Assembly: GCA_041650805.1 (NCBI GenBank)
Contig: JBAZKM010000004.1
Location: 41,636 to 105,635, forward strand
Source: Candidatus Omnitrophota bacterium
GTDB taxonomy: Bacteria; Omnitrophota; Gorgyraeia; 2-01-FULL-45-10
Reading direction: 5' to 3'
Length of the DNA stretch: 64,000 nucleotides
Numbering within the stretch: position 1 is the stretch's first letter; each line of letters starts with the position of its first letter. A program made the translations under genes and the position numbers. The notes beneath the pieces were generated by a model, which did no database searches, was not told the DNA's origin, and worked only from the letters and a program-made list of their open reading frames with translations. Positions 18,493 to 55,620 of this stretch are shown piece by piece.

Positions 18493-19128
18493 CTATGAGA
18501 TTCTCTTTTTTCTTCTTGCCATTGCCATTGCTGCGGCACCAATACCGAATAGCACCATAGTGGCCGGCTCCGGGACAACTCCGGATGGATTTCCATAAGC
18601 CCTATACGCAAAGTCAAGATTATCGTTATCCGAATATGTGCCATAATTAGTAATTAAGGCTTCATCCGGTATCGGGTTTATTGGGTTTCTATCCATCGCG
18701 CCCGTATAAGTATCTCCTGTTCTTACTTCGAAAGCAACCCAATAATTACCGGCCGGCAACGCCCAATTTACGCCGCTTACACCATACCAGCCTGTAGCTG
18801 CTCCAACTAAAAAGTTCTGGTCATATAATTGGCTATTGACGTCTGGGATGATCCCTGAATAAATTCCATCACCATAAATTGCCAGGGTCGCTGTCCCGCT
18901 CACTTGAAGGTGTCTCCATCTTTGGTCTGTAAAGTGAGCTTCGATGTTAGTGAGCGAATAAGGGTCAGACAATGTAAACCTGGCGGCGTATCCTAAGCCG
19001 TTTTCCATATAACCATAGACTGCCGCATCGGGAGGGGTCCCCGTATCAAATATTACTGCCCCATAAGCCTGGCTCGAAATTAACAACATGGTAGCAAGCA
19101 GCGTATTTAATATTATTTTTATTCTCAT
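18493..19128 (-). CDS. PEP-CTERM sorting-domain secreted protein
   Basis: Signal peptide MRIKIILNTLLATMLLISSQAYG. C-terminal VPEPATMVLFGIGAAAMAMARRKKRIS (PEP motif + TM + basic tail). RBS AAGGGGG upstream of the chosen ATG. Confidence 0.7.
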   Translation of the reverse strand: MRIKIILNTLLATMLLISSQAYGAVIFDTGTPPDAAVYGYMENGLGYAARFTLSDPYSLTNIEAHFTDQRWRHLQVSGTATLAIYGDGIYSGIIPDVNSQLYDQNFLVGAATGWYGVSGVNWALPAGNYWVAFEVRTGDTYTGAMDRNPINPIPDEALITNYGTYSDNDNLDFAYRAYGNPSGVVPEPATMVLFGIGAAAMAMARRKKRIS

Positions 19129-19396
19129 CCCTACCCCCTTTTTATGATTGTTTCGATACCGCCATAACTGCCTTATATCATACAATCTAAATACAATATC
19201 TATACAAGCAATAACCGTGCCGATATCAGATACCTTCGTAATTGTTTAAAATGAGATTGGAAAGATGATAGGTATGCCATACTATGACGAGTATGGTGTT
19301 TAAGCGGCTATACACGTGACTAAAATCAGGGCTTGTATAAAAAGCTCGATGGGTCCACCAGGCAGCAGGGCACATTTAAGGATTGTGCCAATTTAC

Positions 19397-19717
19397 TCAA
19401 ACTTTTCGAGGGGACAGGTCTGGGATGCCATCCGGAACCGGTCTGGGATTGGTACGAGAACCGTCCCCGAAAACCGTGGATAAGTATATTCGGCCATCTG
19501 ACAAATGCCCAGTGTCTAATACACTAACGATATTGGCGTGTTCAGCGGCCTTGAGAATTTGTGCTTCATAAAAGAAATTTTTCTGATTAACAATTTTATC
19601 TTTGGGAATAAACTTAACCGCACATTCTGTATTTAATCCAGTGTCTATAGCCAACCAAACCTCTCCAAAATGACCAGAACCCAATTTTTCCTTTAATTCA
19701 AATTTATCTAGCGTCAT
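19397..19717 (-). pseudogene. truncated Ser/Thr protein kinase (N-lobe only)
   Basis: LGSGHFGEVW (Gly loop), AVKFI (beta3 Lys), EAQILK (alphaC Glu), HANIV. Kinase similarity ends after about 90 aa, where the GC content jumps from about 30% to about 60%. The reading frame continues into unrelated sequence. Confidence 0.5.
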
Positions 19718-20171
19718 GAAACGTGCTCCATCCGACTAAAATTGCCTCTTGAATACATGTATCTATTTCAGCAAAGTCTTGGAAAACAGAATAGTCTAAA
19801 TCTGTTTTTAAAGATTGAGTCCTTCCTTTTAATCCCAAATCTTTTGCTATAGTGCAATTAACCTTTTTATAGACTTTAATTCCTTTAATTGCCGCTGCCA
19901 ATTGAATTATGGCCTCATTTTCTGTACGTATTACAAAGGGGCTACCTCTACTTGCCATACCCTCCGTTCCCTTTATCGCTATAGCATCTATTTTATTTTT
20001 TTCTAGAATATCTGTTATTTCTTGAGAAAACCATTTAAGTTCTTGAGGCCTTGTGTAATTCTTGGGAAAGAGTATTCGATTGTGTTGTAAGAGTTTTGGA
20101 GATTTTTTGCTACCATCCAATATAGCAAAACAATAATCTTTCGTGCTACATCTTATTCCCAAAATAATCAT
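19704..20171 (-). CDS. small RNase-H-like-fold protein (possibly DUF3010-like)
   Basis: MIILGIRCSTKDYCFAILDG N-terminus resembles RuvC/YqgF-type beta-strand-1. AT-rich codon usage. Overlaps the kinase start by 14 nt. Confidence 0.3.
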   Translation of the reverse strand: MIILGIRCSTKDYCFAILDGSKKSPKLLQHNRILFPKNYTRPQELKWFSQEITDILEKNKIDAIAIKGTEGMASRGSPFVIRTENEAIIQLAAAIKGIKVYKKVNCTIAKDLGLKGRTQSLKTDLDYSVFQDFAEIDTCIQEAILVGWSTFHDAR

Positions 20172-20283
20172 TATATTTAGCGCCTTATTGTGAAACTGCC
20201 ATTTTGATCACATATTTTTCGTACGGGCAAACATACTATAAAATATAAGGTACTAGTGTTTGTTTCGTAATAATAGATTATAA

Positions 20284-23151
20284 CTAGTAAATGATTTTAT
20301 AATTAAATTTCAGCCAATCACTAATTTCTTTATTAATAAGTGGCATAACATGATCGATTAATCCCAGCTTTCTTTTTAGCAAGTCGCTGAACTTTTTTGT
20401 TACGCTTCGCGGATCTCTATCTGTTGTTACAACTTTTAAAATAATTTCTAAATATTTTCGTCTCATACCAGGGTCTGGTAGTTCGAGTATTATCAGTTTC
20501 ATAAAATCGGTTAAAACATTAAGTTGTGAATCTAGGGTGGTTTCTTTGGATTGCAGTATGTCAATAAATGCGTTAAAATCATTGGACGCTTGAAAACTAT
20601 TTTTTTCTGCACAGTATAATAGCATCTGGGCTGAGATTGAAAGATAATAATACTTTAGGCCTGCTAATTTAATTACCGCATCATAATATTCAGATTCACT
20701 CAGTAGCTTTTTTTGTACAAGCATAGTTAGAAAATTTTGTATGCTAAAGCTGTCTATTTTATAATCATTAAATAATAATTCTTTGAATAAAAGATCATCA
20801 CAAAATAACGGCAGTCTCTTCTCTTTGCATGTTTGTATAGAATAAATGTAGGGTCTCCCCAAAAGCTGTTCTTTAGTTTCTAGGTCTTTTTCTAATAGCT
20901 TATCTAGGCCAATTATATTAAAAGTATTTGCTGCAGCATCTTTGATTTTTTGTAGAAAGTCTATTTTATTTTTGCTACCTTCTGCAGAAAAATTTTGCCT
21001 ATAGGCTTTCCCCTCATGATAAAAGACCGACATTCCTTCACTATCCCCAAATCCTGTTTCATCGGCTATGCTCATATCTATTTCATCTATTGTCGCTCTG
21101 GTGACATAAACCTTATCAAAGTATTTTGTCGGCAATGTTAACATGTCTAAATACGCTAAAGTAAATAAAGAGAGCGGATCCAATAACACCTCTTTAGATT
21201 TATTAATTAATTCCTGTTCTTTTATTTGTTCTACGGCGCTTCCAGAGGCACAAAATAATCTATTGCCCATTGCAATTAAACCAGCCCAGGCAGTAAATAA
21301 ACTAATATTCATAAATTTAGACAATGCGCCTATTGTTAACTTTTTAGATAAATACATTTGGGTTATCTGTGATGCGTATTCCGATTTCCTCTTTACCATT
21401 TCTAGTACTTTTTCAGGATTCGCTTCAATTTTCTGTATTGTTTTATTGCTGGGGAAATATGTATTAAAATTGTTTAGTATACTTTGGAATAATTTTACAT
21501 ATTTACTTTTTATTCCCAAAATTTCAACTACCTCATCTCGCCCGCCTTCTATCTTAATCGTTATTTTATCGCCAATTTTTTTTCCATAAATCGCTTTGCC
21601 TAAATTTGATTCTTTATAGATTTCTGCCCTAACTAATGATGCCCCAGGATCATCTAATAATAAAAACTCGCTTTCTTGACCATCTTTTCTTAATCTTATA
21701 TAAAAATCTTCTTTAACAAATTCTGATTCTAAAATAAGATCGCCTGTTTTCTTGCCTTTTTTGAGAAATAAAAATAAGTATAAAAGCTGTGTCTCAGCAT
21801 CGCTATCAGCAAGGGCTACTACCTTATACGCTTGCTTAATTGCTTCTTCTGTATAATTAGTCCGTGCCAAGAATTTTGTTAGTAAAAGAAGGGTGTCTTT
21901 ATCATTAATACGGTTTTTGATCTCTAAGAGTGATTTTATCTGATGTTCTTTATCGCTCCCCCCGATGTCGTTGACCATTGCTGTGTAATTAATCTTATGC
22001 CTGTAATTTTGTGGTTCTATTTTTACCAATCTTAAATATAGATCCCTAGCTTTATCTAATGAGCCTAATTGTTGGTAAATCGCTGCTTGTAATTCTAACA
22101 CGAATGGGATATCGCCTTGTTTAGCTATTAGATTTTTACATACTTCTAAACATTTTTGTATGTTTTCCGCTCTGTTTTCTTTTGATTCGTATAGACATAT
22201 TAAATAATCTTTTATAAAATCGTCAAATAAAGATTCTGAAACTATAACTTCATATAGCGGTATTGCAGCATCATATGAGCCGATCTTTTTATAATGTTTG
22301 GCCAAATGTATTATTGCAATATTTTTTTCTGGTCCTGTAGCAGTTTTCATCACTTCCGTTATTAGTGATTTAAAAGCCTCTGTTTCTCCTTTAGCCCTTT
22401 TTATCTCTGCATCTAATAGTAGTATTTTTGGGTCTTTACCAAATTTGCTATATAGTTGCTTTAAAATACTGCTTGCTTCATCATAATCTTTTTTTGATAC
22501 GTAGGTTTCTGCTAATAACAAATTGGGTACAATATTTAAACTGAGAAGCTCTTCTTTATAATATTGTTTAATTGCAGCAATTGCTTCCTCAGCTCTCGGC
22601 TCTGGTTGATCTACATACGATGATACTAGGGTTGGCATTATGTCATCTTTACTAGCGCCCCCATCTAAAGCTTTCTTAAAATCTACTATTGCTTCATCTT
22701 GGTTTTTAGTTAATACATTTATTTTTGCTTTATTTGCATATGCAAGAGGGTTTTTAGGATCAATTTCCAATACGGCATTTATGTCGTTAATAGCAAGATC
22801 AAACTTATCTAATATGGCTCTAACGCTAGATCTGTTTATGTAGGCATCTTCTAGTAGGGTCTTTTTATCAGTTGTTTTTAACAAATTGATGGCTTGTGTT
22901 AATAATCGTTCCGATTCTTCTAAGTCTTTTATATTTTCTGAGGATAGACCAAAGCGCCAAGCTCGGCCTTTCATAATAAATTGCAGTAAATGCGAGCCAT
23001 ATGTTAAATAAATTTCTGGTATGTCCTTCGCCGTCTCTAACGCTTTCTGGAAATATTCCTTTGCTTTTACAATTTCGTCTTTTTTTGCATAGGCAAGAGC
23101 AATATTTAGCAAAGCGTTTTTATCTTTTTTAAATCTATCTTTAATTTCCAT
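20284..23151 (-). CDS. large TPR-repeat protein (955 aa) with uncharacterised C-terminal half, low-GC
   Basis: More than 10 TPR-like repeats in the N-terminal about 480 aa. The C-terminal half has a possible PIN-like segment (VLLDPLSLFTLAYLDMLTL...VYVTRATIDEI). GC about 30%. Confidence 0.55.
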   Translation of the reverse strand: MEIKDRFKKDKNALLNIALAYAKKDEIVKAKEYFQKALETAKDIPEIYLTYGSHLLQFIMKGRAWRFGLSSENIKDLEESERLLTQAINLLKTTDKKTLLEDAYINRSSVRAILDKFDLAINDINAVLEIDPKNPLAYANKAKINVLTKNQDEAIVDFKKALDGGASKDDIMPTLVSSYVDQPEPRAEEAIAAIKQYYKEELLSLNIVPNLLLAETYVSKKDYDEASSILKQLYSKFGKDPKILLLDAEIKRAKGETEAFKSLITEVMKTATGPEKNIAIIHLAKHYKKIGSYDAAIPLYEVIVSESLFDDFIKDYLICLYESKENRAENIQKCLEVCKNLIAKQGDIPFVLELQAAIYQQLGSLDKARDLYLRLVKIEPQNYRHKINYTAMVNDIGGSDKEHQIKSLLEIKNRINDKDTLLLLTKFLARTNYTEEAIKQAYKVVALADSDAETQLLYLFLFLKKGKKTGDLILESEFVKEDFYIRLRKDGQESEFLLLDDPGASLVRAEIYKESNLGKAIYGKKIGDKITIKIEGGRDEVVEILGIKSKYVKLFQSILNNFNTYFPSNKTIQKIEANPEKVLEMVKRKSEYASQITQMYLSKKLTIGALSKFMNISLFTAWAGLIAMGNRLFCASGSAVEQIKEQELINKSKEVLLDPLSLFTLAYLDMLTLPTKYFDKVYVTRATIDEIDMSIADETGFGDSEGMSVFYHEGKAYRQNFSAEGSKNKIDFLQKIKDAAANTFNIIGLDKLLEKDLETKEQLLGRPYIYSIQTCKEKRLPLFCDDLLFKELLFNDYKIDSFSIQNFLTMLVQKKLLSESEYYDAVIKLAGLKYYYLSISAQMLLYCAEKNSFQASNDFNAFIDILQSKETTLDSQLNVLTDFMKLIILELPDPGMRRKYLEIILKVVTTDRDPRSVTKKFSDLLKRKLGLIDHVMPLINKEISDWLKFNYKIIY

Positions 23152-23154
23152 TTT

Positions 23155-24147
23155 CTAACCCTCTTTACGATATAACGTCATCGCTTCTTCTGTCTTATCA
23201 GCAGCCATTAGTAATTCGAATTTTATATTAATTGCTTCGTTATCATTTGGATCCATTATTATAGCTGCATCTATATATGGTAGACCATCCAAAGGCTTGT
23301 CCTCAAATAAACATGCCAATGCTCTATTCTTACAAGCAATAAGTGAGGGTGGAGATATAAAATCATATGCAATTTTAAACATTTTCGACGCTTCTGCTTC
23401 ATCTCCTAATACTACATAACATACGCCAAGATTATTATAAACCTTGAATTTTGCAATCATTGGTACTTTAAGGTCTTTTTTAAAATCATTTATTAATTTT
23501 TCGTATATTATTTTTGCGCTTTCATGCTTGGCGTTATCCATTAAAACTTTGGCGTTATCGATTTCGGTTTTATACTTACACCCCTCTAGCGAATCGATGT
23601 CACTAACTTTGGCAGGTAAAATATTGGATCGAGATGTGCTTATAGATTGTTCATAAGTTAATTCTGTCGATGGTTTCTTTTCGAGCGTTTTTGCTATATT
23701 AGTTCGAACCTCTATCATCATTTTGTTAGTAGCTTCCATTGTTTGAGAAACAGAAAGAGGCACATGCTCTGCTTTGGGTAATTCTTCCGTAAAAATTTCT
23801 ATAAACCTAGCGCTTATTAACCCTATGTCTCGTTGCTTAAGATTAGTGCATTCCCCACATTTTTCGTTCAAACCTTTAGATATAGCGTCTTGCGCTATTT
23901 GAGGATTTATCTTGTAGTTTTGACCGATTACGGCGATAAGCTCTTTATTATTACTAAGCGTTTCCCATAAAATGATATCAATTCGTCCACTTTTTAATTC
24001 ATTAGAAACTCTTCGTGCAGATATAATAACTGCTTTTAGTATAGGCTCTTTTCTGAACAAAGAGAGGAGCTTTTCAACGGCCTTTTCTCCAAAAACCGTT
24101 GTTATTAACTCTGCTCCCTTTATACATATCTGGAATAATATTTCCAT
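23155..24147 (-). CDS. hypothetical protein with C-terminal TPR repeats, low-GC
   Basis: 330 aa. 4-nt gap to the downstream TPR gene (likely operon). No recognised N-terminal domain. Confidence 0.45.
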   Translation of the reverse strand: MEILFQICIKGAELITTVFGEKAVEKLLSLFRKEPILKAVIISARRVSNELKSGRIDIILWETLSNNKELIAVIGQNYKINPQIAQDAISKGLNEKCGECTNLKQRDIGLISARFIEIFTEELPKAEHVPLSVSQTMEATNKMMIEVRTNIAKTLEKKPSTELTYEQSISTSRSNILPAKVSDIDSLEGCKYKTEIDNAKVLMDNAKHESAKIIYEKLINDFKKDLKVPMIAKFKVYNNLGVCYVVLGDEAEASKMFKIAYDFISPPSLIACKNRALACLFEDKPLDGLPYIDAAIIMDPNDNEAINIKFELLMAADKTEEAMTLYRKEG

Positions 24148-24170
24148 ATAGCAGATTAATCCTATAATAA

Positions 24171-24203
24171 AAAAGCGTTAGAATTAATTCTAACGCCTTA
24201 ACA
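24171..24203 (-). terminator. rho-independent terminator downstream of tRNA-Asp
   Basis: Minus strand GGCGTTAGAAT-T-AATTCTAACGC hairpin followed by TTTTTTAT. Confidence 0.45.
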
Positions 24204-24445
24204 TTCTTAATGTTATGTAATTGCTCTTGATCTCATAACCAACCCTTTGTTGTCTGATATTATAGCAGTATCGAGATATTACTACAAGGATTAGGTTAGA
24301 GCGACAGTTGGCTTCAGTAGAGTAGTTTGACTATTATACTTACGATGAGCGAGGCAAGACACTACGTTGTGACAGGATTGTGACATAAAAAAACTCGCCC
24401 TAAGTATAGAATTAGAGCGAGTCCGCCACTTACTCGACGATAAAC

Positions 24446-24522
24446 TGGCGGGGACGACGGGGATCGAACCCGCGACCTTCAGATCGACAATCTGACGTTC
24501 TAACCAGCTGAACTACGTCCCC
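24446..24522 (-). tRNA. tRNA-Asp (anticodon GTC)
   Basis: 77 nt. GGGGACGTAGTTCAGCTGGTTAGAACG...anticodon loop TTGTCGA...CGGGTTCGATCCCCGTCGTCCCCGCCA. Perfect 7-bp acceptor stem. Close to E. coli tRNA-Asp. Confidence 0.85.
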
Positions 24523-24663: not shown

Positions 24664-26340
24664 TTATTTCCGGCGGCTCTCTTTTTTGAAGGCTGCCGCG
24701 CCTTCGAAGATGAGAAAGGCCGACAGGGCGAGCAGGATAAAGATAGTGATGTCGTTTGCGCCGATACCGGGCCTGCCCGATGCCAGGCGCACCAATGTGG
24801 GTTTGACCAGCAGGATGAGCGCGGTTATCGAGGTCACAAGCATAAAGACCGTCGCAAGAAGGACATGGAAAAATTTCATCTTACTCTTGAAGAGCCACAG
24901 GCTGATGATCAGGAGCACAAACCCCGCCAGAAGCTGGTTACTGGCGCCGAAGACCGTCCAGAATACCTTCCATGCCGGGATGACGTTGCCGTCCGCGTCA
25001 ACGATCTTCTGCATCAGGAAGACGGCGGGCAAAAGAAGCGTGATGAAGCTCGCGATATACGGGCTGAAACGGTTGCGCATACCGGCCAGTTCTTCAAATA
25101 TGTAACGGCCGAGACGCGTCGCCACATCGAGCGTGTCATACACAAATGTTGCGAACGCAAGGAGCGCAAAATTGAGCGCGAAGGCGTGCGGTATGCCCAG
25201 GCGGTCCAGGAATGTCGCGATACCGCTCGCGTAGATCATGTTCGGATCTTTGAGCGCATTCGCCTGCGACGCCCCGAGAACCATAAGGGTCGAGAGGGCG
25301 ATGATAGCCACCGCGCTTTCCAGGAGCATCCCGCCATACCCGACAGGCGCAGCGTCGGTCTCCTTATGGAGCTGCCGCGAAGTGGTGCCGCTTGCCACCA
25401 GCGCATGAAACCCCGAACATGCGCCGCATGCGATCGTGATGAAGAGTATCGGGAAGAGAGGAAGGCCCGAGGGGTTCTGCCAGGATATGAACGCCGGGTA
25501 CTCGACATGCAGACCCCCGAAGAGCGATCCTATCGCTATACCGATGAAGCTGACAAAGACCGTCCCTGCCAGGAAGAACCCTCCCATATACCCGCGTGGC
25601 TGCAGGAGGAGCCATACCGGGATGACCGAAGCCATAAAGCAGTAACATAAAAGGAGTATATCCCATGTCTGACGCACTTCCATCCCCGGTATCGGCGGGA
25701 TATACAACGGGAAGAGATTCCCCGCATAAATACACCCCAGTATCAACGGCGCAAATATAGCGGTTGCGAGAGCCAGGTTCATCCTGAAACGCTTGACCGC
25801 TATGCCCATCGCCAGAGCAAGGCCGAGGTATAGCATTGAACTCGATGCCACCTTGCCGCCGTTCACCGGCTCAACGAACGTGTTCACCGTAATATCGGTA
25901 AAGACGGTTATTATGTACATGAGCGAAAACCACAGGAAGATGAGGAATACGATAAACGCCCGAGGCGGCATGTAATTCTTGACCACCTCAGCGATCGACC
26001 TTCCCTCGTGCCGTATCGAAGCTACGAGGGCGCCCATATCGTGTACGCCGCCGATAAGGATGCCGCCGATGATTATCCATAACACGGCAGGGCCCCAGCC
26101 GAACCATAGACCCGCCAGGATCGGGCCGACGATCGGGCCCGCCGCGGCGATGGCCGAAAGGTGCTGGCCCAGGAGATAGGTCTTATGGATCGGTTCGTAA
26201 TCCATGCCGTCGCGAAGCGTATGCGCGGGGGTCTTACACCTGTCGTCGAGGCAAAATGATCTCTTCAGGAAAAACCCGTAGATGAAATACCCCGCCGCTA
26301 ACGGCACGAATAAAAGTATGACGGTGAAGAAGAGGTTCAC
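24664..26340 (-). CDS. cstA: carbon starvation protein A (peptide/pyruvate transporter)
   Basis: 558 aa multi-pass protein. MDYEPIHKTYLLGQHLSAIAAAGPIVGPI N-terminal signature. Confidence 0.85.
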   Translation of the reverse strand: MNLFFTVILLFVPLAAGYFIYGFFLKRSFCLDDRCKTPAHTLRDGMDYEPIHKTYLLGQHLSAIAAAGPIVGPILAGLWFGWGPAVLWIIIGGILIGGVHDMGALVASIRHEGRSIAEVVKNYMPPRAFIVFLIFLWFSLMYIITVFTDITVNTFVEPVNGGKVASSSMLYLGLALAMGIAVKRFRMNLALATAIFAPLILGCIYAGNLFPLYIPPIPGMEVRQTWDILLLCYCFMASVIPVWLLLQPRGYMGGFFLAGTVFVSFIGIAIGSLFGGLHVEYPAFISWQNPSGLPLFPILFITIACGACSGFHALVASGTTSRQLHKETDAAPVGYGGMLLESAVAIIALSTLMVLGASQANALKDPNMIYASGIATFLDRLGIPHAFALNFALLAFATFVYDTLDVATRLGRYIFEELAGMRNRFSPYIASFITLLLPAVFLMQKIVDADGNVIPAWKVFWTVFGASNQLLAGFVLLIISLWLFKSKMKFFHVLLATVFMLVTSITALILLVKPTLVRLASGRPGIGANDITIFILLALSAFLIFEGAAAFKKESRRK

Positions 26341-26414
26341 AAATACCCTTTCTTTTAAGCATCCATTACATTACAACTCTTTTGAGGGGCCATCTTGTTG
26401 GAATCGGTGTGATA

Positions 26415-26436
26415 TGGCTGGCGGAACAGGGCTCGG
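26415..26436 (-). repeat. partial direct repeat of the tRNA-Val(TAC) 3' end (att-like remnant)
   Basis: TGGCTGGCGGAACAGGGCTCGG versus the tRNA 3' end TGGTGGGCGGAACAGGGCTCGA (20/22 matches). Confidence 0.5.
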
Positions 26437-26444
26437 TCCTCCGC

Positions 26445-26561
26445 ATAAACTAATCTCTCTTTTGTGGCCCGCCTTCGCAATCAACTGTCAAACGAATCGG
26501 TGCTTCGGCGGGCTCATCCGCCGAAGCCTTCTGTCGTCTGCCTGTTGTTGGCGAAGGCGGA
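26445..26561 (-). repeat. 117-nt conserved structured element immediately 3' of tRNA-Val (copy A)
   Basis: Near-identical to 55246-55362 apart from 2-3 substitutions in the first 20 nt and a few at the distal end. Outer stem CCGCCTTCG/CGAAGGCGG; inner hairpin GGCTTCGGCGG-ATGAGC-CCGCCGAAGC. Confidence 0.6.
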
Positions 26562-26637
26562 TGGTGGGCGGAACAGGGCTCGAACCTGTGACCTCTTGAA
26601 TGTAAGTCAAGCGTTCTACCAGCTGAACTATCCGCCC
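26562..26637 (-). tRNA. tRNA-Val (anticodon TAC)
   Basis: 76 nt. GGGCGGATAGTTCAGCTGGTAGAACGCTTGACTTACATTCAAGAGGTCACAGGTTCGAGCCCTGTTCCGCCCACCA. Confidence 0.85.
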
Positions 26638-44069: not shown

Positions 44070-45167
44070 TTACGTAAGCTGCATCGGTAATACGACATAT
44101 ACATACTCGGTGCCTATCCTAACGACGCCCGGCTTCTCGGGATCGGCTACCTCAAAATGTATCTCGCCGACATCCGCGTTCTTCAGTATGTCCACGAGAT
44201 AGTCGGGGTTGAACCCTATGGAGATATCCTTCCCTTTATAATCGACGTCGAGCTCTACGCGCGCCTCCCCAAGATACGGCGCGCTCTTCAACAGGACCAT
44301 CTTGTCGCGCGCGAGGTCCAGCTTCACCGCCTTCGACTCCGGGTTGGTGAAGAGCGCCACCCTCTTCAGCGCCGATAAAAATTTATCCCTGGAGACGACT
44401 ATCTTCTCTTTCGTCTCTTTGGGCACAACCTGTTCATAATTGGGGAAATCACCTTCTATCAACCTTGATATGACGCGGGTGGACCCGACCTCGAAGAGCG
44501 TCTGGTTATCCCCGAAACTTATCTTCACTTCGCCTTCGTCCGTCAAGACCCTGAGCAACTCATTCACGGTCTTTGTGGGCACTATCATCTTTCTCTCCAG
44601 CGCCTTCGGGAACTGCATCTTCTCTTCCACCATCGCGAGCCGTCTCCCGTCGGTGGCAACGAGCCGTATATATGCCGGTTTTATCACGAAGAGTACGCCG
44701 TTCAGGACATACCTGGTCTCGTCGCTGCTTATGGCGAATACCGTCATGCCCAGCATCGCTTTTAACTTCTTCTGTTCCAGCATGATGAAGTCCTTGTTTT
44801 TAAACTCCGGGAGTTGCGGGAACTCGTCTTTGGGCAGCCCCATTATCTTAAAGGTGTTTTTGTCGCATTCAATGTGGATCATGTTGTTCTTTTTGACCGA
44901 CACGGATATATCTTCGTTTTCCGGCAGCTCTTTTATGATGTCGGCGAATTTCTTCGCGGGGATCGTTATGTTCCCTTCGATCGCGGGTTTTATCTGGATA
45001 GCCGATACTATACCTATATCGAAATCTGTTGCCGTAAATACGATATTTTCGCCGGCTGCTTCAACGAGTATGTTGGTCAATATAGGTGAGCTGCTCTTTG
45101 CGTTGATAGCGTTCTGGACGCTTTGTATGCCTTTAAGTAAGATATCTTTTTTTGTGTTGAATTTCAT
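44070..45167 (-). CDS. dnaN: DNA polymerase III beta sliding clamp
   Basis: 365 aa three-domain clamp. MKFNTKKDILLKGIQSVQNAI. Confidence 0.9.
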   Translation of the reverse strand: MKFNTKKDILLKGIQSVQNAINAKSSSPILTNILVEAAGENIVFTATDFDIGIVSAIQIKPAIEGNITIPAKKFADIIKELPENEDISVSVKKNNMIHIECDKNTFKIMGLPKDEFPQLPEFKNKDFIMLEQKKLKAMLGMTVFAISSDETRYVLNGVLFVIKPAYIRLVATDGRRLAMVEEKMQFPKALERKMIVPTKTVNELLRVLTDEGEVKISFGDNQTLFEVGSTRVISRLIEGDFPNYEQVVPKETKEKIVVSRDKFLSALKRVALFTNPESKAVKLDLARDKMVLLKSAPYLGEARVELDVDYKGKDISIGFNPDYLVDILKNADVGEIHFEVADPEKPGVVRIGTEYVYVVLPMQLT

Positions 45168-45334
45168 TATCTTTCGTCTCCTGTTAGTTCTACTTATCTT
45201 TTATAACAAATAGCAGCAGCACTTAGCAGTAGGGTCTGTTGATAAGTGAGTAAGTCATCAACCCCAATAGGAACAACGGATTGAAACCCGGGAGCATGAG
45301 CAATATTATAAATACTTATCAACATGATCAACAA

Positions 45335-46711
45335 TCAACTTTTAATATTTTTAATAAGCTTGTCGGTTATATCCCTTAAACCCTCTTTTGACTTAAGGTC
45401 GTTCTCTATCTTTTCACAGGCGTGTATAACGGTCGTGTGGTCCCTGCCCCCGAAGTTCTCACCTATCTCAGGTAAAGAGTAATCGGTCAGTTTGCGCGTG
45501 AGGTACATCGCGATCTGGCGCGGGTAAGCGACCGCCTTACTCCTGTTCTTCGCCTTCATGACAGAAAGTTTTATGTCGAAATATTCGCTCACCTTCTTCT
45601 GGATGAGCTCGATGGTGATCTTCTTCTCCCCCTCCACTATCATATCTTTCAGCACCTCCCTGGCAAGGTCCAGGGAGACATCCCTTCCTATGAGCTTGGA
45701 ATAAGCGACTACGCGTATAAGCGCGCCTTCCAGTTCCCTGATATTCGTCTTTATCTTCTCTCCCAGGAAGTAGAAAACGTCGTCGGGGAGCGCGATCGTC
45801 TCTTTTTCGGACTTCTTTTTCAGTATGGCGATCCTCGTCTCAAAATCGGGCGGCTGTATATCGGTGACGAGTCCCCACTCGAACCGCGATACGAGCCGGT
45901 CCTCGAGGTTCTGGATCTCTTTCGGCGGCCGGTCGCTGGAGACGACGATCTGCTTATGGGCGTCGAAAAGGGCGTTGAACGTGTGGAAGAACTCTTCCTG
46001 CGTCGACTCCTTGCCGGCGATGAACTGGATATCGTCTATCAGAAGGATGTCCACGTACCTGTACTTCTCCCGGAATTTCTGGGTGGTCCTGTTCTGGATG
46101 GCGCCTATGAGCTGGTTCGTGAACTCCTCGCTCGATATGTAGAGGATCTTCGTCTTGGGGAACTTCTGGACGGCGCTCTGCCCTATGGCGTGCATCAGGT
46201 GCGTTTTGCCCAATCCTACACCGCCGTATATGAAGAGCGGGTTGTACGCCTTTGCGGGGGATTCGCAGACGGCCATCGACGCGGCATGGGCGAACCGGTT
46301 GCTTGACCCGACGACGAAGCTCTCGAACGTATACTTGGGGTTGAGGCCTATCTCTTTCGGCGAGTCCGGGTTCTGGCGCGCGAACGGCCAGAACGGCTTC
46401 TCTTTCTTCGGCTCTTTTTTACGCGCGGGGTCTTCCCGCAGGGCCTCTTCGTCGCCCATCTCCTTGAGAGCGAATTCTACGCCGAGCTCTTTGCCGACGG
46501 CCTTTGCTATGCACGAACGTATCACATCCATGTACCGCTCGAGAAGCCAGCTCTTGAAGAACTTATTCGGGACTTCCAAAGTTATCGTGTCGGCGTTTAT
46601 GGATGAGCACCGTATCGGGCCGAACCAGATATCGAACGTCCGGTCGTTAGCGAGCTCCTTTTTGATCATCTCCCGGGCCTTGACCCATACGGCTCCGCCG
46701 TCAATCGCCAT
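45335..46711 (-). CDS. dnaA: chromosomal replication initiator protein
   Basis: Walker A GGVGLGKTHL, AAA+ boxes, C-terminal DnaA-box binding HTH (RDHTTVIHACEKI). Confidence 0.9.
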   Translation of the reverse strand: MAIDGGAVWVKAREMIKKELANDRTFDIWFGPIRCSSINADTITLEVPNKFFKSWLLERYMDVIRSCIAKAVGKELGVEFALKEMGDEEALREDPARKKEPKKEKPFWPFARQNPDSPKEIGLNPKYTFESFVVGSSNRFAHAASMAVCESPAKAYNPLFIYGGVGLGKTHLMHAIGQSAVQKFPKTKILYISSEEFTNQLIGAIQNRTTQKFREKYRYVDILLIDDIQFIAGKESTQEEFFHTFNALFDAHKQIVVSSDRPPKEIQNLEDRLVSRFEWGLVTDIQPPDFETRIAILKKKSEKETIALPDDVFYFLGEKIKTNIRELEGALIRVVAYSKLIGRDVSLDLAREVLKDMIVEGEKKITIELIQKKVSEYFDIKLSVMKAKNRSKAVAYPRQIAMYLTRKLTDYSLPEIGENFGGRDHTTVIHACEKIENDLKSKEGLRDITDKLIKNIKS

Positions 46712-46966
46712 AATATAGGACCTTACTTTGAGTTATCCACAACCCAATAACAACTTTTCAACACGAAAAAGGGGTTATCCACAAGTTACAAACAAGCATC
46801 GCAGCCGCGACGTTCAGTTATTATAGTAGATTATATAAAGTAGTGCAAGAGAAAAATGAGCCCGCCATTAAATGTATTGACTCAATTATTCTTTATGATA
46901 TAATTTAGCACACGCAATTTTGCTTTCGGGGGAAGACCGTCAGCTTAAAACAGGAAAGGGATGACC
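46712..46966. promoter_or_regulatory. oriC-like region with DnaA boxes
   Basis: Perfect TTATCCACA at 46733-46741 and 46775-46783, plus an AT-rich stretch at 46815-46860. Variant boxes TTATCAACA also occur in the dnaA-dnaN spacer (about 45215-45320). Confidence 0.55.
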
Positions 46967-47104
46967 ATGAAGTATACGCTAAGGGCGAAATCGAACCTCA
47001 GGAGAAAGAGAAAGCACGGGTTCAGGAAGAGGATGAAGGACCGCTGGGGCAGGGCCGTTCTGAAGAGGAGACGACAGAAAGGCCGGCACAAGCTCACCGT
47101 ATGA
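46967..47104 (+). CDS. rpmH: 50S ribosomal protein L34
   Basis: [45 protein letters not shown]. The ORF has no stop-free run long enough to appear in the ORF track. Confidence 0.85.
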
Positions 47105-47460
47105 TCTCCGACGGAGATTTTCCGAAAGAAGAACATCTTTTAAAGACAGGGGATTTCAGGAAGGTCTATAAGAACGGGTCGGCCCACAAGAGGGACCCCC
47201 TCTTTTTGTACCGCCTGCCGAACGCCGGGGAGACGATAAGGGTCGGTTTCTCGGTGAGCTCGCGCAGCATAAAACTGGCGACAAGACGGAACAGGATAAA
47301 GCGGCTTTTGCGCGAGGCATACCGGTTGAACAAGGCGAAGCTTAAAAAAGGGTTCGATATAGTCATAGTGGTGCGCAGGGATCCGTCCCCCGCATTGGCT
47401 TATAAAGATATAGAGAAGAAGTTCCTGGGCGTTGCCGGAGAGGCGGGTATATTGAAGTGA
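47101..47460 (+). CDS. rnpA: RNase P protein component
   Basis: ATGA overlap with rpmH. RNR motif region [23 protein letters not shown]. Confidence 0.85.
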
Positions 47461-47666
47461 AGAAGATAGCCATTTGCATGCTGAAGTTATATCGTAACTA
47501 TCTATCACCATTGAAGTTACAATGCTGCAGGTTTTACCCATCCTGTTCGGAATACGCCATCGGGGCCATAGAGAAACACGGCCTTTTATCCGGCGGCCTG
47601 AAGAGCATAAAGCGCATCCTGAGGTGCAACCCGTTCTCGCAAGGCGGGTACGATCCTGTCAAATAA
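47457..47666 (+). CDS. yidD: membrane protein insertion efficiency factor
   Basis: YRNYLSPL...[11 protein letters not shown] signature. Confidence 0.8.
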
Positions 47667-47682
47667 GAGAGAGTAATATATC

Positions 47683-49290
47683 ATGGAAAAACGGCTTGTC
47701 CTGGCAGTGGCATTATCGATATTGATCATCGTCTCATTCCAGTACTTCTTCGTGAAACCTCCTGTCCGCGCGCCGGATGTAAAGGGTGTGGTGAAGGAAG
47801 ATACGGCGCCCGTCCGGGCCGTTGTTAAGGAAGCGGCGGAACTGCCCCCATCCTTAGAGGCGCCCTCAAATATCGCTTTCGAAGAGGAAGAGCTTGAGGC
47901 AGATGCCGGGAAATATATCCTAACCTTCAGCAACGTCGGCGGTTCAATAAAAAAGATACGCCTGAAAGAGCATAAGAACCCGCATTCCACCGAAATGTTA
48001 GATTTGGTTGATCTAACAAATCCAAAGATGTATGTATTCTCTTTCTCCGATTCGACAGGCTCCCTCCCTTTCGACACAATAAAATATAATATCGAGAAGA
48101 GCGGTGACGATATAATCGCTTCTGCCAGGATAGGCGATATCGAAGTTGTGAAAAGATATGTATTACATAACTCTAAGCATATCATAGAGTTAGATATAGC
48201 AATAAAGAATATATCCGGCTCCTCGAGATCTTTCGGTTACAGAATAATAGGTGGTTCTGGGCTTAAAGAGCCGGATCCACAGGATGTAAGATTTATTGAA
48301 GTAAGATCCAAGGTGAACGGCATCATATTAAATTTTAAACATCCGAAGAAGGGGCGTATTACAAACCCCGGCATAGTGAGTTGGACCGCCATCAAGAATA
48401 AGTACTTCTGTATCGTGATGAAACCGTTCGGCGCGACGAAAGACCAGTTCTATAGCGAGGCGAAAGACGGTCTATTCAGCACAGGTATAGAATCGCCCTT
48501 GATCGAGATCCCATCGGGATCCGTTGTATCTCAGAAATTCATTCTTTATGCGGGGCCAAGCCAGATATCCCTGCTGAAGGAAGTGGGATTCGAATTTGCA
48601 GAGAGTGTAGATTATGGATTTTTCGGCGGGATAAGCAGGGCGCTCATAGCTGTGATGCGATTCTTCTATTTCCTTTTACATAGTTGGGGTCTATCCATAA
48701 TCCTCCTCTCCATATTTTTAAACCTTATACTATCCCCTCTCACATTTAAAAGTTTTAAATCTATGCAGAAGATGCAGGCCCTCCATCCGCAGATGGAGAA
48801 ATTGAAGGCACAGCATAAAGACAACCCGCAGAAATTGAATAAAGAGATGCTGGAGTTGTATAAAAAATATAAGATAAATCCTTTAAGCGGCTGTCTGCCG
48901 ATGCTCCTGCAGATGCCGATATTCATCGCCCTGTATAACGCGCTTATACGGTCTATAGAATTACGCGGGAGCACATTCTTATGGATAAGAGATCTCTCTC
49001 TGCCGGATGCGGTTAAGATCCCGATCACATTACCGATATTCGGTGACAGCATAAATATTCTGCCGCTCCTGATGGTCGGAGCCATGGTACTTCAACAGAA
49101 TATGTCTACAAAGCAGATGGGCAGCGCCGTTACCGATGAGCAGAAACAGCAACAGCGGATGATGTTGATAGTTATGCCTATCGTATTCGGGTTCATATTC
49201 TATAATATGCCATCCGGGCTCGTGTTATACTGGATAATAAATACGGTATTGACCGTTGTCGAGCAATACGCGATATTTAAGAATATATAA
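47683..49290 (+). CDS. yidC: membrane protein insertase YidC
   Basis: Periplasmic domain followed by the 5-TM core. Sits in the conserved rpmH-rnpA-yidD-yidC context. Confidence 0.85.
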   Translation: MEKRLVLAVALSILIIVSFQYFFVKPPVRAPDVKGVVKEDTAPVRAVVKEAAELPPSLEAPSNIAFEEEELEADAGKYILTFSNVGGSIKKIRLKEHKNPHSTEMLDLVDLTNPKMYVFSFSDSTGSLPFDTIKYNIEKSGDDIIASARIGDIEVVKRYVLHNSKHIIELDIAIKNISGSSRSFGYRIIGGSGLKEPDPQDVRFIEVRSKVNGIILNFKHPKKGRITNPGIVSWTAIKNKYFCIVMKPFGATKDQFYSEAKDGLFSTGIESPLIEIPSGSVVSQKFILYAGPSQISLLKEVGFEFAESVDYGFFGGISRALIAVMRFFYFLLHSWGLSIILLSIFLNLILSPLTFKSFKSMQKMQALHPQMEKLKAQHKDNPQKLNKEMLELYKKYKINPLSGCLPMLLQMPIFIALYNALIRSIELRGSTFLWIRDLSLPDAVKIPITLPIFGDSINILPLLMVGAMVLQQNMSTKQMGSAVTDEQKQQQRMMLIVMPIVFGFIFYNMPSGLVLYWIINTVLTVVEQYAIFKNI

Positions 49291-49305
49291 AAGATCGTCA
49301 AAAGC

Positions 49306-49334
49306 TTGACAAAAGACGGTTATTCAGGTATATT
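49306..49334 (+). promoter_or_regulatory. putative sigma70 promoter for parAB
   Basis: TTGACA (49306-49311), 17-nt spacer, TATATT (49329-49334). Confidence 0.4.
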
Positions 49335-49370
49335 TCTAGTAAAACGTTCCCCGTGGAACATTCCATAGAC

Positions 49371-50219
49371 ATGGCTAAAGTAATAGCGATATGTAATCAA
49401 AAAGGCGGTGTTGGAAAGACGACAACCGCAATAAATCTCGCCACTTGCCTTGCCTTATCAGGTATAAAGATACTGCTCATCGATATAGACCCACAGGGCA
49501 ACGCTACAAGCGGTTTAGGAATAGACAAGCATACTATAAAGACGAGCGTCTACGACCTCCTGGTGGACGAATCCGACCCAAAATCGGTCATTTTAAAGAC
49601 CGGCATAGATAACCTTTCCATCATACCGTCAAATTTGAATCTTACAGGCGCAGAGGTTGAGTTGGTTGGCATTATGGGTAGAGAGTATCGGCTCAAAAAG
49701 GCTCTTGCCGCAATAAGCCAGGATTACGATTTCATATTGATAGACTGTCCGCCATCGCTCGGTTTATTGACCATAAATGCTTTATCATCAGCATATTCCG
49801 TACTTATACCGATACAATGCGAATATTATGCACTTGAAGGGCTGAGTCAACTCTCTAATACTATAAATCTGGTAAGAGAAAACCTGAATCCTTCGCTGCT
49901 CATAGAAGGCGTTCTTCTTACGATGGCAGATTTCAGGACTAAGCTTACCAATGAAGTTATAAATGAAGTAAGGAACTTTTTTAAAGAGAAAGTATATAAC
50001 ACTGTGATACCCAGGAATATACGTTTAACAGAAGCGCCCGGTTTTGGGAAACCGATCGCCCTATATGATAAAAATTCGATCGGCGCTCAGAAGTACCAGG
50101 ATTTCACAAATGAATTTTTAGGAGTAAAGAAAGACGGCTCTGTTACTAGCCAGACAAATTTACATAACGATAGTATTGATAGTAACTTACAAAAAGTTGA
50201 GGAAGGAGAAGTTAAATGA
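49371..50219 (+). CDS. parA: chromosome partitioning ATPase ParA/Soj
   Basis: KVIAICNQKGGVGKTTTAINLA deviant Walker A. Confidence 0.85.
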   Translation: MAKVIAICNQKGGVGKTTTAINLATCLALSGIKILLIDIDPQGNATSGLGIDKHTIKTSVYDLLVDESDPKSVILKTGIDNLSIIPSNLNLTGAEVELVGIMGREYRLKKALAAISQDYDFILIDCPPSLGLLTINALSSAYSVLIPIQCEYYALEGLSQLSNTINLVRENLNPSLLIEGVLLTMADFRTKLTNEVINEVRNFFKEKVYNTVIPRNIRLTEAPGFGKPIALYDKNSIGAQKYQDFTNEFLGVKKDGSVTSQTNLHNDSIDSNLQKVEEGEVK

Positions 50220-51076
50220 CTCAAAGCCGAGCTTTAGGTAAAGGGTTGAGCGCACTCATCCCACAAAGGGAAGCGGCAGGTCCGGGTCCCCAGGAACAGG
50301 TGATGAACATCCCGATCTCACAGATAAGGACCAGTAAATATCAACCGCGCCTTGAGTTCAACCAGGAGAGGCTGAATGAACTGGTGAGCTCCATACGGGA
50401 GAAGGGAGTGGTGCAGCCGGTATTGGTCCGGCGTGTCGATAACGGCTATGAGTTGATCGCCGGAGAGCGGAGGCTGCGGGCCGTAAAGAATCTCGGGATC
50501 GCCAACATCCCCGCCATAGTCAGGGAGGTGGGGGAGATCGACATGCTAGAAATGGCGCTCATCGAGAACATACAGCGGGAAGGGCTGAACCCGATGGAGG
50601 AGGCCAACGCATTCCAGCGGTTCGCGACCGATTTTAATTTCACCCAGGAGAAGATAGCAAAGGTCCTCGGCAAGGACCGTTCTACCATTGCAAATACGCT
50701 TCGCCTTCTCGCCCTCCCGAAAAAGATACAGGAGTACATCTCCAAGAATATCCTGACGGCAGGACATGCGAAGGCGCTCCTTGCCCTCCCGACGGAGAGC
50801 GAGCAGCTGCGTGTCGCCACGCTCATAATAAAGAAAGCCCTCTCGGTACGGGAGACGGAACAACTGGTATCCAAAAGGGTCTCCGGCACCAAGAGGAGAC
50901 AGGCGCTCAAGGACCCCCACATAGGGGAGATCGAATCGCGCCTTCAGCAGGCGCTGGGGACCAGGGTGAAGATATTCCACGGGAAGAAGCGCGGGAGGAT
51001 ACAGATCGAATACTATTCTTACGAGGACCTTAACCGCCTCGTCGATATCTTTGCCCAGAAACCGGGCGCCAACTAA
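50216..51076 (+). CDS. parB: chromosome partitioning protein ParB/Spo0J
   Basis: GERR arginine patch (LIAGERRLRA), HTH, C-terminal dimerisation domain. Confidence 0.85.
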   Translation: MTQSRALGKGLSALIPQREAAGPGPQEQVMNIPISQIRTSKYQPRLEFNQERLNELVSSIREKGVVQPVLVRRVDNGYELIAGERRLRAVKNLGIANIPAIVREVGEIDMLEMALIENIQREGLNPMEEANAFQRFATDFNFTQEKIAKVLGKDRSTIANTLRLLALPKKIQEYISKNILTAGHAKALLALPTESEQLRVATLIIKKALSVRETEQLVSKRVSGTKRRQALKDPHIGEIESRLQQALGTRVKIFHGKKRGRIQIEYYSYEDLNRLVDIFAQKPGAN

Positions 51077-55168: not shown

Positions 55169-55245
55169 GGACGCGTAGCTCAGTTGGTTAGAGTGCTTCC
55201 TTGACATGGAAGAGGTCACAGGTTCGACCCCTGTCGCGTCCACCA
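55169..55245 (+). tRNA. tRNA-Val (anticodon GAC)
   Basis: GGACGCGTAGCTCAGTTGGTTAGAGTGCTTCCTTGACATGGAAGAGGTCACAGGTTCGACCCCTGTCGCGTCCACCA. Confidence 0.85.
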
Positions 55246-55362
55246 TCCGCCTTCGTCGACAACAGGCAGACGACAGAAGGCTTCGGCGGATGAGCCCGCC
55301 GAAGCACCGATTCGTTTGACAGTTGATTGCGAAGGCGGGCCACAAAAGAGAGATAAGTTCAT
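55246..55362 (+). repeat. 117-nt conserved structured element immediately 3' of tRNA-Val (copy B)
   Basis: Near-identical reverse complement of 26445-26561. Same position relative to a tRNA-Val 3' end, and the same nested stems. Confidence 0.6.
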
Positions 55363-55620
55363 AGGGAGAGGGTATATCCCCCACCACTTAAATGCCCTCG
55401 CCTTATAATATAGTTATATCTCAAAATTCCCTCTTAATAATAGTTAATACATAAAAAAGCAAGATATTACCTCTTGTCTATATCATAATAAGCAGGTAAA
55501 CTTATGATATAAGACGCTAGAGTGCACATTACTTGCCTGTATGTTAAGCAGATCCGGGCAGGTAAATTTTTTTCATCCGTTGTTTTATGTATTTACAAAG
55601 AGCGAAGGAAACTATTGGAT

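Follow-up and report, generated by a model that had tools for sequence, protein, structure and literature searches.

Several kinds of described repeat come close to the element reported here. Repetitive extragenic palindromic (REP) sequences are units of 20–40 nt with a GTAG or CGTC tag, and their paired form, the REPINs (REP doublets forming hairpins), is mobilised by Y1 transposases called RAYTs (REP-associated tyrosine transposases). REPs number in the tens to hundreds per genome, outside genes, and usually flank the RAYT gene. Non-autonomous derivatives of insertion sequences (IS) of the IS200/IS605 type, such as palindrome-associated transposable elements (PATEs), carry a hairpin at each end and leave no regular target-site duplication (TSD); in IS608 and ISDra2, a guide pairs with the cleavage site. 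Correia and ERIC/IRU elements (enterobacterial repetitive intergenic consensus, intergenic repeat unit) belong to the palindromic MITEs (miniature transposable elements with inverted repeats) and have terminal inverted repeats (TIRs) matching those of IS families as well as fixed TSDs, TA in the case of Correia. REP dimers fold separately or as one large stem-loop (PMC3733652). Here, we describe a stretch that follows the tRNA-Val(TAC) gene in 64,000 nt of Candidatus Omnitrophota bacterium DNA (assembly GCA_041650805.1, contig JBAZKM010000004.1, positions 41,636 to 105,635; the whole stretch is referred to as the window). It is one copy of an Omnitrophota-type family of double-hairpin repeats of ~100 bases, and we take it for a small repeat element rather than for what an integrated island has left behind. 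The architecture is of an already known kind, that of REP dimers and palindromic MITE-like repeats; as far as we could find, there is no description of the monomer size, the absence of the tag, the flush and oriented docking at tRNA genes with shared base pairs, or the covariation between flank and loop.

A double-hairpin repeat follows two tRNA-Val genes

Past the CCA of tRNA-Val(TAC), read in the tRNA sense, a single T (26561) leads into a 92-nt imperfect palindrome made of two 43-nt arms, 74% complementary, around a 6-nt loop (Table 1). The stems named in the first-pass annotation of this DNA are present (CCGCCTTCG.../...CGAAGGCGG and GCTTCGGCGG/CCGCCGAAGC), but their nesting in a single hairpin finds no support in covariation, which speaks for two stem-loops side by side. 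The strand also needs correction: the tRNA, the element, its tail and the partial copy of the tRNA end beyond the tail are all on the minus strand. Folded as RNA, a 161-nt stretch with the palindrome reaches −64.9 kcal/mol (z = −6.4), a stability matched by none of 200 shuffles. The element lies between pyrF-pyrE and cstA and, counted together with the tail and the tRNA-end copy, forms a unit of 147 nt.

The 117-nt segment had been called conserved, and this is borne out by a second copy located, with the same tail, directly 3′ of tRNA-Val(GAC). The two window hairpins are 97.8% identical, whereas the two tRNA-Val genes are only about 75% identical. The second copy is flanked by coaBC, a pseudopilin gene and tRNA-Cys on one side and by a giant open reading frame (ORF) on the other.

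Distribution of the repeat family

The search for further copies, recommended at first pass, uncovered a family with many members at tRNA 3′ ends (loci are cited by L numbers). Scanning species-representative genomes with an apical-stem pattern returned mostly chance GC hairpins from high-GC taxa; the only genuine matches were L034, in which tRNA-Val(cac) is followed by one T and then a homologous hairpin, and, in part, L024, a partial relative in an Omnitrophota metagenome-assembled genome. A more specific pattern, applied in one scan of metagenome contigs, gave at least 80 loci, about 65 of them with genuine copies, and a covariance model was built from 40 copies. Because the family counts come from these metagenome loci, they are lower bounds. 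By this model there are at least about 61 distinct full copies, plus weaker ones and isolated monomers. The family was absent from the viral contigs and from the plasmid and phage collections searched. An Rfam-style search, likewise proposed at first pass, matched no family beyond tRNAs, the sub-threshold matches being hairpin look-alikes of plant and animal miRNA precursors. A literature search yielded no description of an Omnitrophota repeat or of a tRNA-end MITE like this family.

The position of the copies relative to tRNA genes is precise. Sixteen copies begin exactly 1 nt past the CCA of complete tRNA genes of nine isoacceptors (Val-TAC, Val-GAC, Val-CAC, Thr-CGT, Pro-CGG, Pro-GGG, Arg-TCG, Arg-ACG and Leu-CAG), with Thr-CGT serving as host at five loci, and three finish on the first two bases of tRNA-Lys(TTT), so that about one third of copies are flush with the end of a tRNA gene. 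Six more lie less than 400 nt from a tRNA, and 36 of the 61 are found between housekeeping genes without a tRNA nearby. Contigs other than that of the window hold two to four copies within 11 kb or less. Identity is 98% within a contig (window and L062) and 74% (median) between contigs, and the motifs S1–S4 do not vary, although elsewhere the copies diverge by about 26%. When 148 ORFs within 2 kb of a copy were scanned with Pfam, housekeeping families came up (e.g., RRF, Mur ligases and aminotransferases); among the 25 commonest of the 175 matched families, the sole recurrent one from mobile elements was Phage_integrase, found four times at one orthologous site.

Some loci carry arrays. In L122, the intact tRNA-Leu(CAG), itself followed by a full double hairpin, is directly preceded by three tandem 75-nt units; in each, a single hairpin monomer is joined through a 17-nt spacer to a duplicate of the tRNA's first 12 nt. 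L129 contains three head-to-tail double hairpins, the last of which overlaps the first bases of tRNA-Lys(TTT); such docking on the 5′ end of tRNA-Lys is also seen in L101/L108 and L124. A strongly diverged element after tRNA-Ser(CGA) in L062 has CCGCC changed to TCTAC/GTAGG and is followed by CCCTCTCCGCCA, a fragment resembling a tRNA 3′ end that is also found before other copies (L062b, L126 and L134).

Two adjacent hairpins and the nature of the element

In a 40-sequence alignment, the two-hairpin model is 91% paired and has a covariation of 0.182 compared with 0.096 for shuffled partners, a value reached by none of 500 shuffles; cells with double changes number 59 against 21.7 expected, and slid controls are 31–40% paired. 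Informative pairs are 19:41 (AU 24, CG 14), 57:101 (CG 25, UA 14), 56:102 (GC 18, AU 12), 18:42 and 67:91. The long single hairpin, by contrast, is rejected as the functional fold: it is 78% paired, like its shuffled partners (78.2%), with a covariation of 0.104 compared with 0.100 in shuffles, and compensated changes in the inner stem of hairpin A turn into mismatches of the long hairpin (19:90 is unpaired in 18 of the 40 sequences). The covariation analysis suggested by the first-pass annotation thus supports the double hairpin above shuffles, but not the nested one.

Each arm alone folds at −19 to −24 kcal/mol; A and B are separated by 0–2 nt, with a complementarity of about 78%. At tRNA-Val(TAC), hairpin A is closed by the stem CAU-CCGCC ... 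GGCGG-AUG, inside which a UUC/UUC internal loop leads to an inner stem capped by a loop, and hairpin B has a GC-CCGCC ... GGCGG-GC closing stem and a GAA/GAA internal loop. The model originated from the observation that the palindrome's flanks match its loop in reverse complement: the 2–3 bases on the left match the start of the loop, and the bases on the right match its end. Accordingly, the closing stems reach 2–3 nt into the apparent flanking DNA (CAT...ATG for A, GC...GC for B), and flank columns covary with loop columns. CAT pairs with the ATG where A and B meet, which makes the CA at the end of the tRNA a structural part of hairpin A; the last two bases of tRNA-Val(TAC) (26562–26563) form its outer pairs, which are pairs 6:54 and 7:53 of the alignment. 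The left flank is CCAT in 26 and CAT in 36 of 62 copies, and the right flank is GCCA in 18 and ACCA in 2 of 62; recurrence of CCA or CAT is mainly a property of tRNA-type copies. In other subfamilies, the matching flank and loop bases are TAT/ATA, TGT/ACA, TAC/GT, GAT/ATC and GTTA/TAAC. By analogy, this complementarity could represent either a simple extension of the stems or guide-like target recognition of the IS200/IS605 type.

Mismatches at the real pairs are about equally often G-U (24) and A-C (19). A selected RNA fold normally tolerates G-U far more than A-C, so this symmetry points to folding at the DNA level, with pairing on either strand. Together with the distribution of the family, these features lead us to favor, with modest confidence, a non-autonomous DNA repeat similar to REP dimers and REPINs, which forms two hairpins in single-stranded DNA, depends on an enzyme acting in trans and either prefers tRNA termini or survives best there. 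Each unit is an inverted dimer of a ~47-nt hairpin monomer, A being followed by B after 0–2 nt, often with a short lineage-specific 3′ tail. It would be, or would have been, copied as single-stranded DNA by the enzyme supplied in trans, and the flank-to-loop complementarity may help to define its ends or its target (the border between NCCA and T). Hairpin-prone DNA at tRNA borders might then provoke local duplications.

Several observations weigh against this explanation. The covariance model finds only two copies in the 64-kb window, both at tRNA-Val. No Y1/HUH transposase, and no RAYT, was detected in the window and 417 kb of loci, a weak test, made by phmmer with an IS200 TnpA query, nor was any Y1 transposase family recurrent among the families listed for the 148 neighboring ORFs; TnpA and TnpB were likewise not found in the scans made of the window, the loci and the neighboring ORFs. 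The ends of the repeat (CAT-CCGCC... and ...GGCGG-GC) lack the GTAG/CGTC tag of REPs. The sequences compared are related and fall into subfamilies, so that some of the covariation could reflect subfamily structure, and the two-hairpin model was read off the same sequences that scored it. Finally, all 19 flush copies are co-oriented with their tRNA, and the downstream gene is co-oriented with the element in 37 of 46 cases, which would equally fit a function as RNA.

Such a function would make the element a signal within the 3′ trailer, transcribed together with its tRNA and serving in processing, insulation or termination, for example, as an entry site for RNase III or RNase P/Z, as a block to 3′ exonucleases or as an NCCA minihelix mimicking the acceptor end. 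The signal would have spread among tRNA genes by gene conversion, and copies away from tRNAs would act likewise in mRNAs. Beyond the uniform orientation and the fixed 1-nt spacing, this would account for the very stable RNA fold, for the (G/A)CCA right flank of 20 of the 62 copies, reminiscent of a discriminator plus CCA after a helix, and for the scores of the window copies under the covariance model, which are 13–19 bits higher on the tRNA-sense strand. Nevertheless, we consider a trailer RNA rather unlikely. G-U is not in excess over A-C at paired positions, and covariation is seen for the separate, much weaker arms but not for the long hairpin, the fold expected to prevail in RNA. No intrinsic terminator site was called at either window copy, where a U-tract is missing and GCCACAAAAG comes after the element, and no Rfam family matches. 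The first C of GCCA is paired in hairpin B, which weakens the case for a free-NCCA mimic, and the element is missing after tRNA-Val(TAC) in two out of three relatives and is hence not essential.

A further possibility, which appears unlikely to us, is a miniature single-stranded DNA element that encodes its own target, the junction bases (ATG...GC) pairing with the borders of the insertion (CA/T and GC). Such an element would aim at the exact tRNA 3′ terminus without damaging the tRNA, possibly by means of an undescribed HUH enzyme or recombinase, and subfamilies with the junctions GTTAT, ATAAC and ATGAT would go to matching flanks. It would amount to a programmable repeat that homes on tRNA ends in a candidate phylum.

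Age of the window copies and origin of the partial tRNA copy

The gene order in relatives is pyrF-pyrE-tRNA-Val(TAC)-(GIY-YIG gene)-tRNA-Asp. In L145, the PyrE of which is 72% identical, tRNA-Val(TAC) is followed by a diverged element with quite different arm interiors that shares the junctions (CCAT, ATGAGC and GCCA) and the beginning of the tail (GCCACAAtAGA..ATTA) with the window copy; there is no tRNA duplicate after it. L146 and L147 have no element at tRNA-Val(TAC). Given the junctions and tail start shared with the L145 ortholog, the Val-TAC copy and its tail are old and vertically inherited. The Val-GAC copy carries a tail of the Val-TAC type and is for this reason a recent intragenomic copy, made when element and tail transposed together or when repair used them as a template.

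The antiquity of the orthologous Val-TAC copy, the transfer of the tail along with the element to tRNA-Val(GAC) and the existence of tandem arrays would also be compatible with an immobile, ancestral palindromic tRNA flank that has been duplicated passively (through tRNA duplication, gene conversion or unequal crossing-over) and is decaying. This scenario is highly improbable: 36 of the 61 copies occupy unrelated intergenic regions between housekeeping genes with no tRNA near, nine isoacceptors share the identical 1-nt junction, and the S1–S4 motifs are constant despite the divergence elsewhere.

In the window, the slot between tRNA-Val(TAC) and tRNA-Asp, filled by the GIY-YIG gene in L145 and L146, contains cstA. 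This gene is not syntenic with tRNA-Val in six relatives, and its closest homologues, with 82–87% identical CstA, sit in unrelated neighborhoods; cstA has thus moved into the slot between the two tRNAs. A role of the element as a leader of cstA, raised at first pass, is therefore unlikely: cstA is unlinked to tRNA-Val in the relatives, and the orthologous element of L145 precedes a different gene, the one for the GIY-YIG protein.

The partial tRNA copy separates the conserved tail from the cstA segment, occupying just the junction of the two, and spans the 3′ side of the T-arm, the 3′ strand of the acceptor, CCA and T. It had been reported as a 22-nt near-copy with 20 matches, which holds for the frame 26414–26435, whereas the frame originally given, 26415–26436, has 19 of 22. 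Chance does not explain the match, since none of 2000 shuffles of the 300 nt downstream reaches 23/27, and the 3′ end of tRNA-Val(GAC) is the only other site in the window with at least 19/27. A decayed second element beyond the partial tRNA was considered and rejected, the collinear similarity (CACCGATTC ... CCTCAAAAGAG) being not significant (p about 0.05–0.13). From its position at the border of tail and cstA segment, we read the partial copy as a probable scar of the rearrangement that joined cstA rather than the right attachment site (attR) left by an excised island; the joining may have brought in, or made, a second end of tRNA-Val in truncated form.

The first-pass annotation had taken the arrangement for the signature of site-specific integration into a tRNA gene. 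This is partly supported, in that the element is tied to tRNA 3′ ends, but the duplication is far from general. Long repeats in the left and right flanks were found at only three of about 60 copies, namely, the window Val-TAC copy, L089 and L113, the last within a simple repeat, and 14 of the 16 copies that begin past a tRNA CCA have none, which rules out a general long target duplication. In L089, 83 nt separate tRNA-Thr from a 20-nt copy of its end; the element comes next, and 17 nt beyond the element lies another copy of the tRNA end, this one decayed. Decayed tRNA 3′ halves precede several non-tRNA copies (L062a/b, L096, L114 and L126). At the Val-GAC copy, ATCCCCCACCA, past the tail, is possibly a decayed remnant of the same kind, although a weak one. 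Fragments of tRNA ends are recurrent companions of the family and not a constant product of its insertion.

Nor do integrases accompany the window copies: none was found within about 20 kb of either (phmmer on all window ORFs, Pfam on the neighbors). An integrase or island context was rejected more broadly, as Pfam returned biosynthetic and housekeeping genes next to the elements of L062, L081, L089 and the window. The inspection of related copies for flanking integrases, another first-pass suggestion, led to a single orthologous site: in L060, L081, L106 and L112, phage-type integrases (Int_N + Phage_integrase) are encoded immediately 5′ of tRNA-Thr(CGT) and end a few bases before it. The element is on the other, 3′ side of the tRNA (in L112, it is 5′-truncated and separated from the tRNA by 1.3 kb). 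If these integrases mark islands, the element is thus on the chromosomal side, the wrong one for island DNA.

A miniature integrative element of 147 nt (element, tail and att core), inserted into tRNA-Val 3′ ends by a tyrosine integrase acting in trans, would rebuild the tRNA end and leave the displaced 3′ end as attR. It would explain the 23/27 direct repeat bounding the Val-TAC unit, the same element and tail at the second tRNA-Val, followed by a weak ...CCCCCACCA, the two tRNA-Thr 3′-end copies around the L089 element, the L122 monomers, each with the first 12 nt of tRNA-Leu before it, and the phage-type integrases abutting tRNA-Thr(CGT) in four element-bearing loci. We nonetheless judge it decidedly unlikely. 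Long flanking repeats are missing from 14 of the 16 flush copies and nearly all others, the repeats that exist are inconsistent in length (5, 12 and 20–27 nt), no integrase is near either window copy, and those 5′ of tRNA-Thr make the element chromosomal flank. The Val-TAC copy and tail have an ortholog in L145, where the tRNA duplicate is missing. Moreover, a 147-bp double-stranded circle is implausible as an integrase substrate. The earlier remark that the insert is too small to be autonomous holds.

Genomic surroundings in the window

Coordinates of the repeat copies and of the genes mentioned are collected in Table 1. Between the two copies lies the replication origin region, with dnaN and dnaA on one strand and rnpA, yidC, parA and parB on the other; the minimum of the cumulative GC skew and the switch in gene strand both fall at ~46.7–47.1 kb. 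Both window copies point away from the dnaA-side origin. The giant ORF next to the Val-GAC copy begins after an AT-rich 240-nt stretch downstream of the element, runs for at least 2,793 codons without a stop and continues past the end of the window.

A 5-kb island of low GC content (31–34% vs. about 55%) directly adjoins tRNA-Asp(gtc) on its downstream side. It encodes a TPR/GreA-GreB-C/PIN protein of 955 aa (PF20698, TPR-GreAB-C-PIN system) and a TPR protein of 330 aa. A search of the window for a second tRNA-Asp 3′ end bounding the island found none. In L145, a gene for a large serine recombinase, with the domains Resolvase, Recombinase and Zn_ribbon_recom, touches or overlaps tRNA-Asp(gtc), and because the same tRNA borders the low-GC island of the window, it may be a recurrent integration site in this lineage.

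Table 1 Positions of the repeat copies and of the associated genes in the window and in related loci
Feature	Coordinates	Strand	Basis or remark
tRNA-Val(TAC)	26562–26637	−	ARAGORN; Rfam tRNA, 74 bits; CCA end at 26562
Imperfect palindrome, 92 nt, Val-TAC copy	26469–26560	−	
Hairpin A, Val-TAC copy	26515–26563	−	Two-hairpin model; alone −19.1 kcal/mol
Hairpin B, Val-TAC copy	26467–26513	−	Near reverse complement of A; alone −22.1 kcal/mol
3′ tail (CACAAAAGAGAGATTAGTTTATGCGGAGG), ~29 nt	26438–26466	−	Alignment with Val-GAC copy; L145 sequence
Partial tRNA-Val(TAC) 3′-end copy, 27 nt	26414–26440	−	23/27 match to 26561–26587
cstA	24664–26340		
tRNA-Asp(gtc)	24446–24522	−	
Low-GC island	19000–24400		
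tRNA-Val(GAC), host of second copy	55169–55245	+	ARAGORN; Rfam
Element plus tail, Val-GAC copy	55246–~55368	+	
Second double hairpin	55244–55340 (A 55244–55292, B 55294–55340)	+	Covariance model, 99.3 bits
Tail of second copy	55341–55368	+	About 26/30 identical to Val-TAC tail
ATCCCCCACCA	55376–55386		Possible tRNA-3′-end-like remnant (weak)
Giant ORF	55621–64000	+	Continues past window end
Replication origin region	44070–51076		
dnaN	44070–45167	−	
dnaA	45335–46711	−	
rnpA, yidC, parA, parB		+	Follow dnaA
Tyrosine integrase gene, L060	2154–3293	Same as tRNA-Thr(CGT)	
Tyrosine integrase gene, L081	1952–3082	Same as tRNA-Thr(CGT)	
Tyrosine integrase gene, L106	722–1342	Same as tRNA-Thr(CGT)	
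Tyrosine integrase gene, L112	1577–2140	Same as tRNA-Thr(CGT)	
Diverged element after tRNA-Ser(CGA), L062	6625–6760		
Three 75-nt units, L122	1830–2140		Tandem, ahead of tRNA-Leu(CAG)
Three double hairpins, L129	444–740		Head to tail
Serine recombinase gene, L145	4473–5570		At tRNA-Asp(gtc)

Comparison with described elements

The closest counterparts are the REP dimers, including bacterial interspersed mosaic elements (BIMEs) and REPINs, with which the family shares imperfect palindromic units, their inverted pairing at a distance of 0–2 nt, separate or joint folding, extragenic location between housekeeping genes, occasional tandem clusters and homogeneity within a genome. It differs from them in the size of the monomer, ~47 nt with an internal 3 × 3 loop, as well as in the missing tag; no RAYT was found in the window and the loci searched. 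To our knowledge, flush and oriented association with the ends of tRNA genes is not a described property of REPs.

The derivatives of IS200/IS605 resemble the present repeat in their terminal hairpins, in the absence of a regular TSD and in the conserved left flank (CCAT or CAT). The orientation of both window copies with fork movement from the dnaA-side origin is a further likeness, but it comes from just two copies, whose host genes run with replication in any case. The complementarity of flank and loop bases is reminiscent of the guide pairing of IS608 and ISDra2; unlike in IS608, however, the complementary bases here merely extend hairpin stems, and the geometry of the left end is different. 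Correia and ERIC/IRU elements are similarly dispersed, intergenic, imperfect palindromes of 100–130 nt which are transcribed into hairpins. In the present family, TIRs are present since the whole unit is palindromic, but, in contrast to MITEs of DDE-type parentage, no duplication of the flank is constant and there is no known parent IS.

Islands integrated in tRNA genes and their remnants of the CIME (cis-mobilizable element) kind also occupy tRNA 3′ ends and are bounded by direct repeats, as is the Val-TAC unit. This unit nevertheless has only 147 nt, no genes and no integrase, most members of its family lack such repeats, and a distant relative has kept its tRNA-proximal part as chromosomal flank. 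External transcribed spacers (ETS) at tRNA 3′ ends, such as 3′ETS-leuZ, share the position immediately after the tRNA and the transcript orientation; they are unique sequences that pair with small RNAs, whereas the palindrome described here is multi-copy and occurs also away from tRNAs. Integron attC sites (RYYYAAC...GTTRRRY, in cassette arrays with intI) were considered and rejected, as the ends here are CCGCCTTCG/CGAAGGCGG and the copies stand singly beside tRNAs or housekeeping genes.

Implications

The finding bears on how hairpin DNA at the borders of tRNA genes may give rise to partial tRNA copies, which are usually accepted as proving integrase activity, and a tRNA 3′ duplicate plus an insert is insufficient evidence for an integrated island. 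If the explanation favored here is correct, Omnitrophota, which are uncultured and for which almost no biology of mobile elements has been described, harbor a repeat akin to REP dimers whose behavior is unusual, in that it settles one base past the CCA of many different tRNAs, or on the first bases of tRNA-Lys, and has base pairs in common with the end of the tRNA. The family would then offer a concrete system in which to study how small palindromic repeats choose safe sites in the genome, and to ask whether the complementarity between flank and element sets the target.

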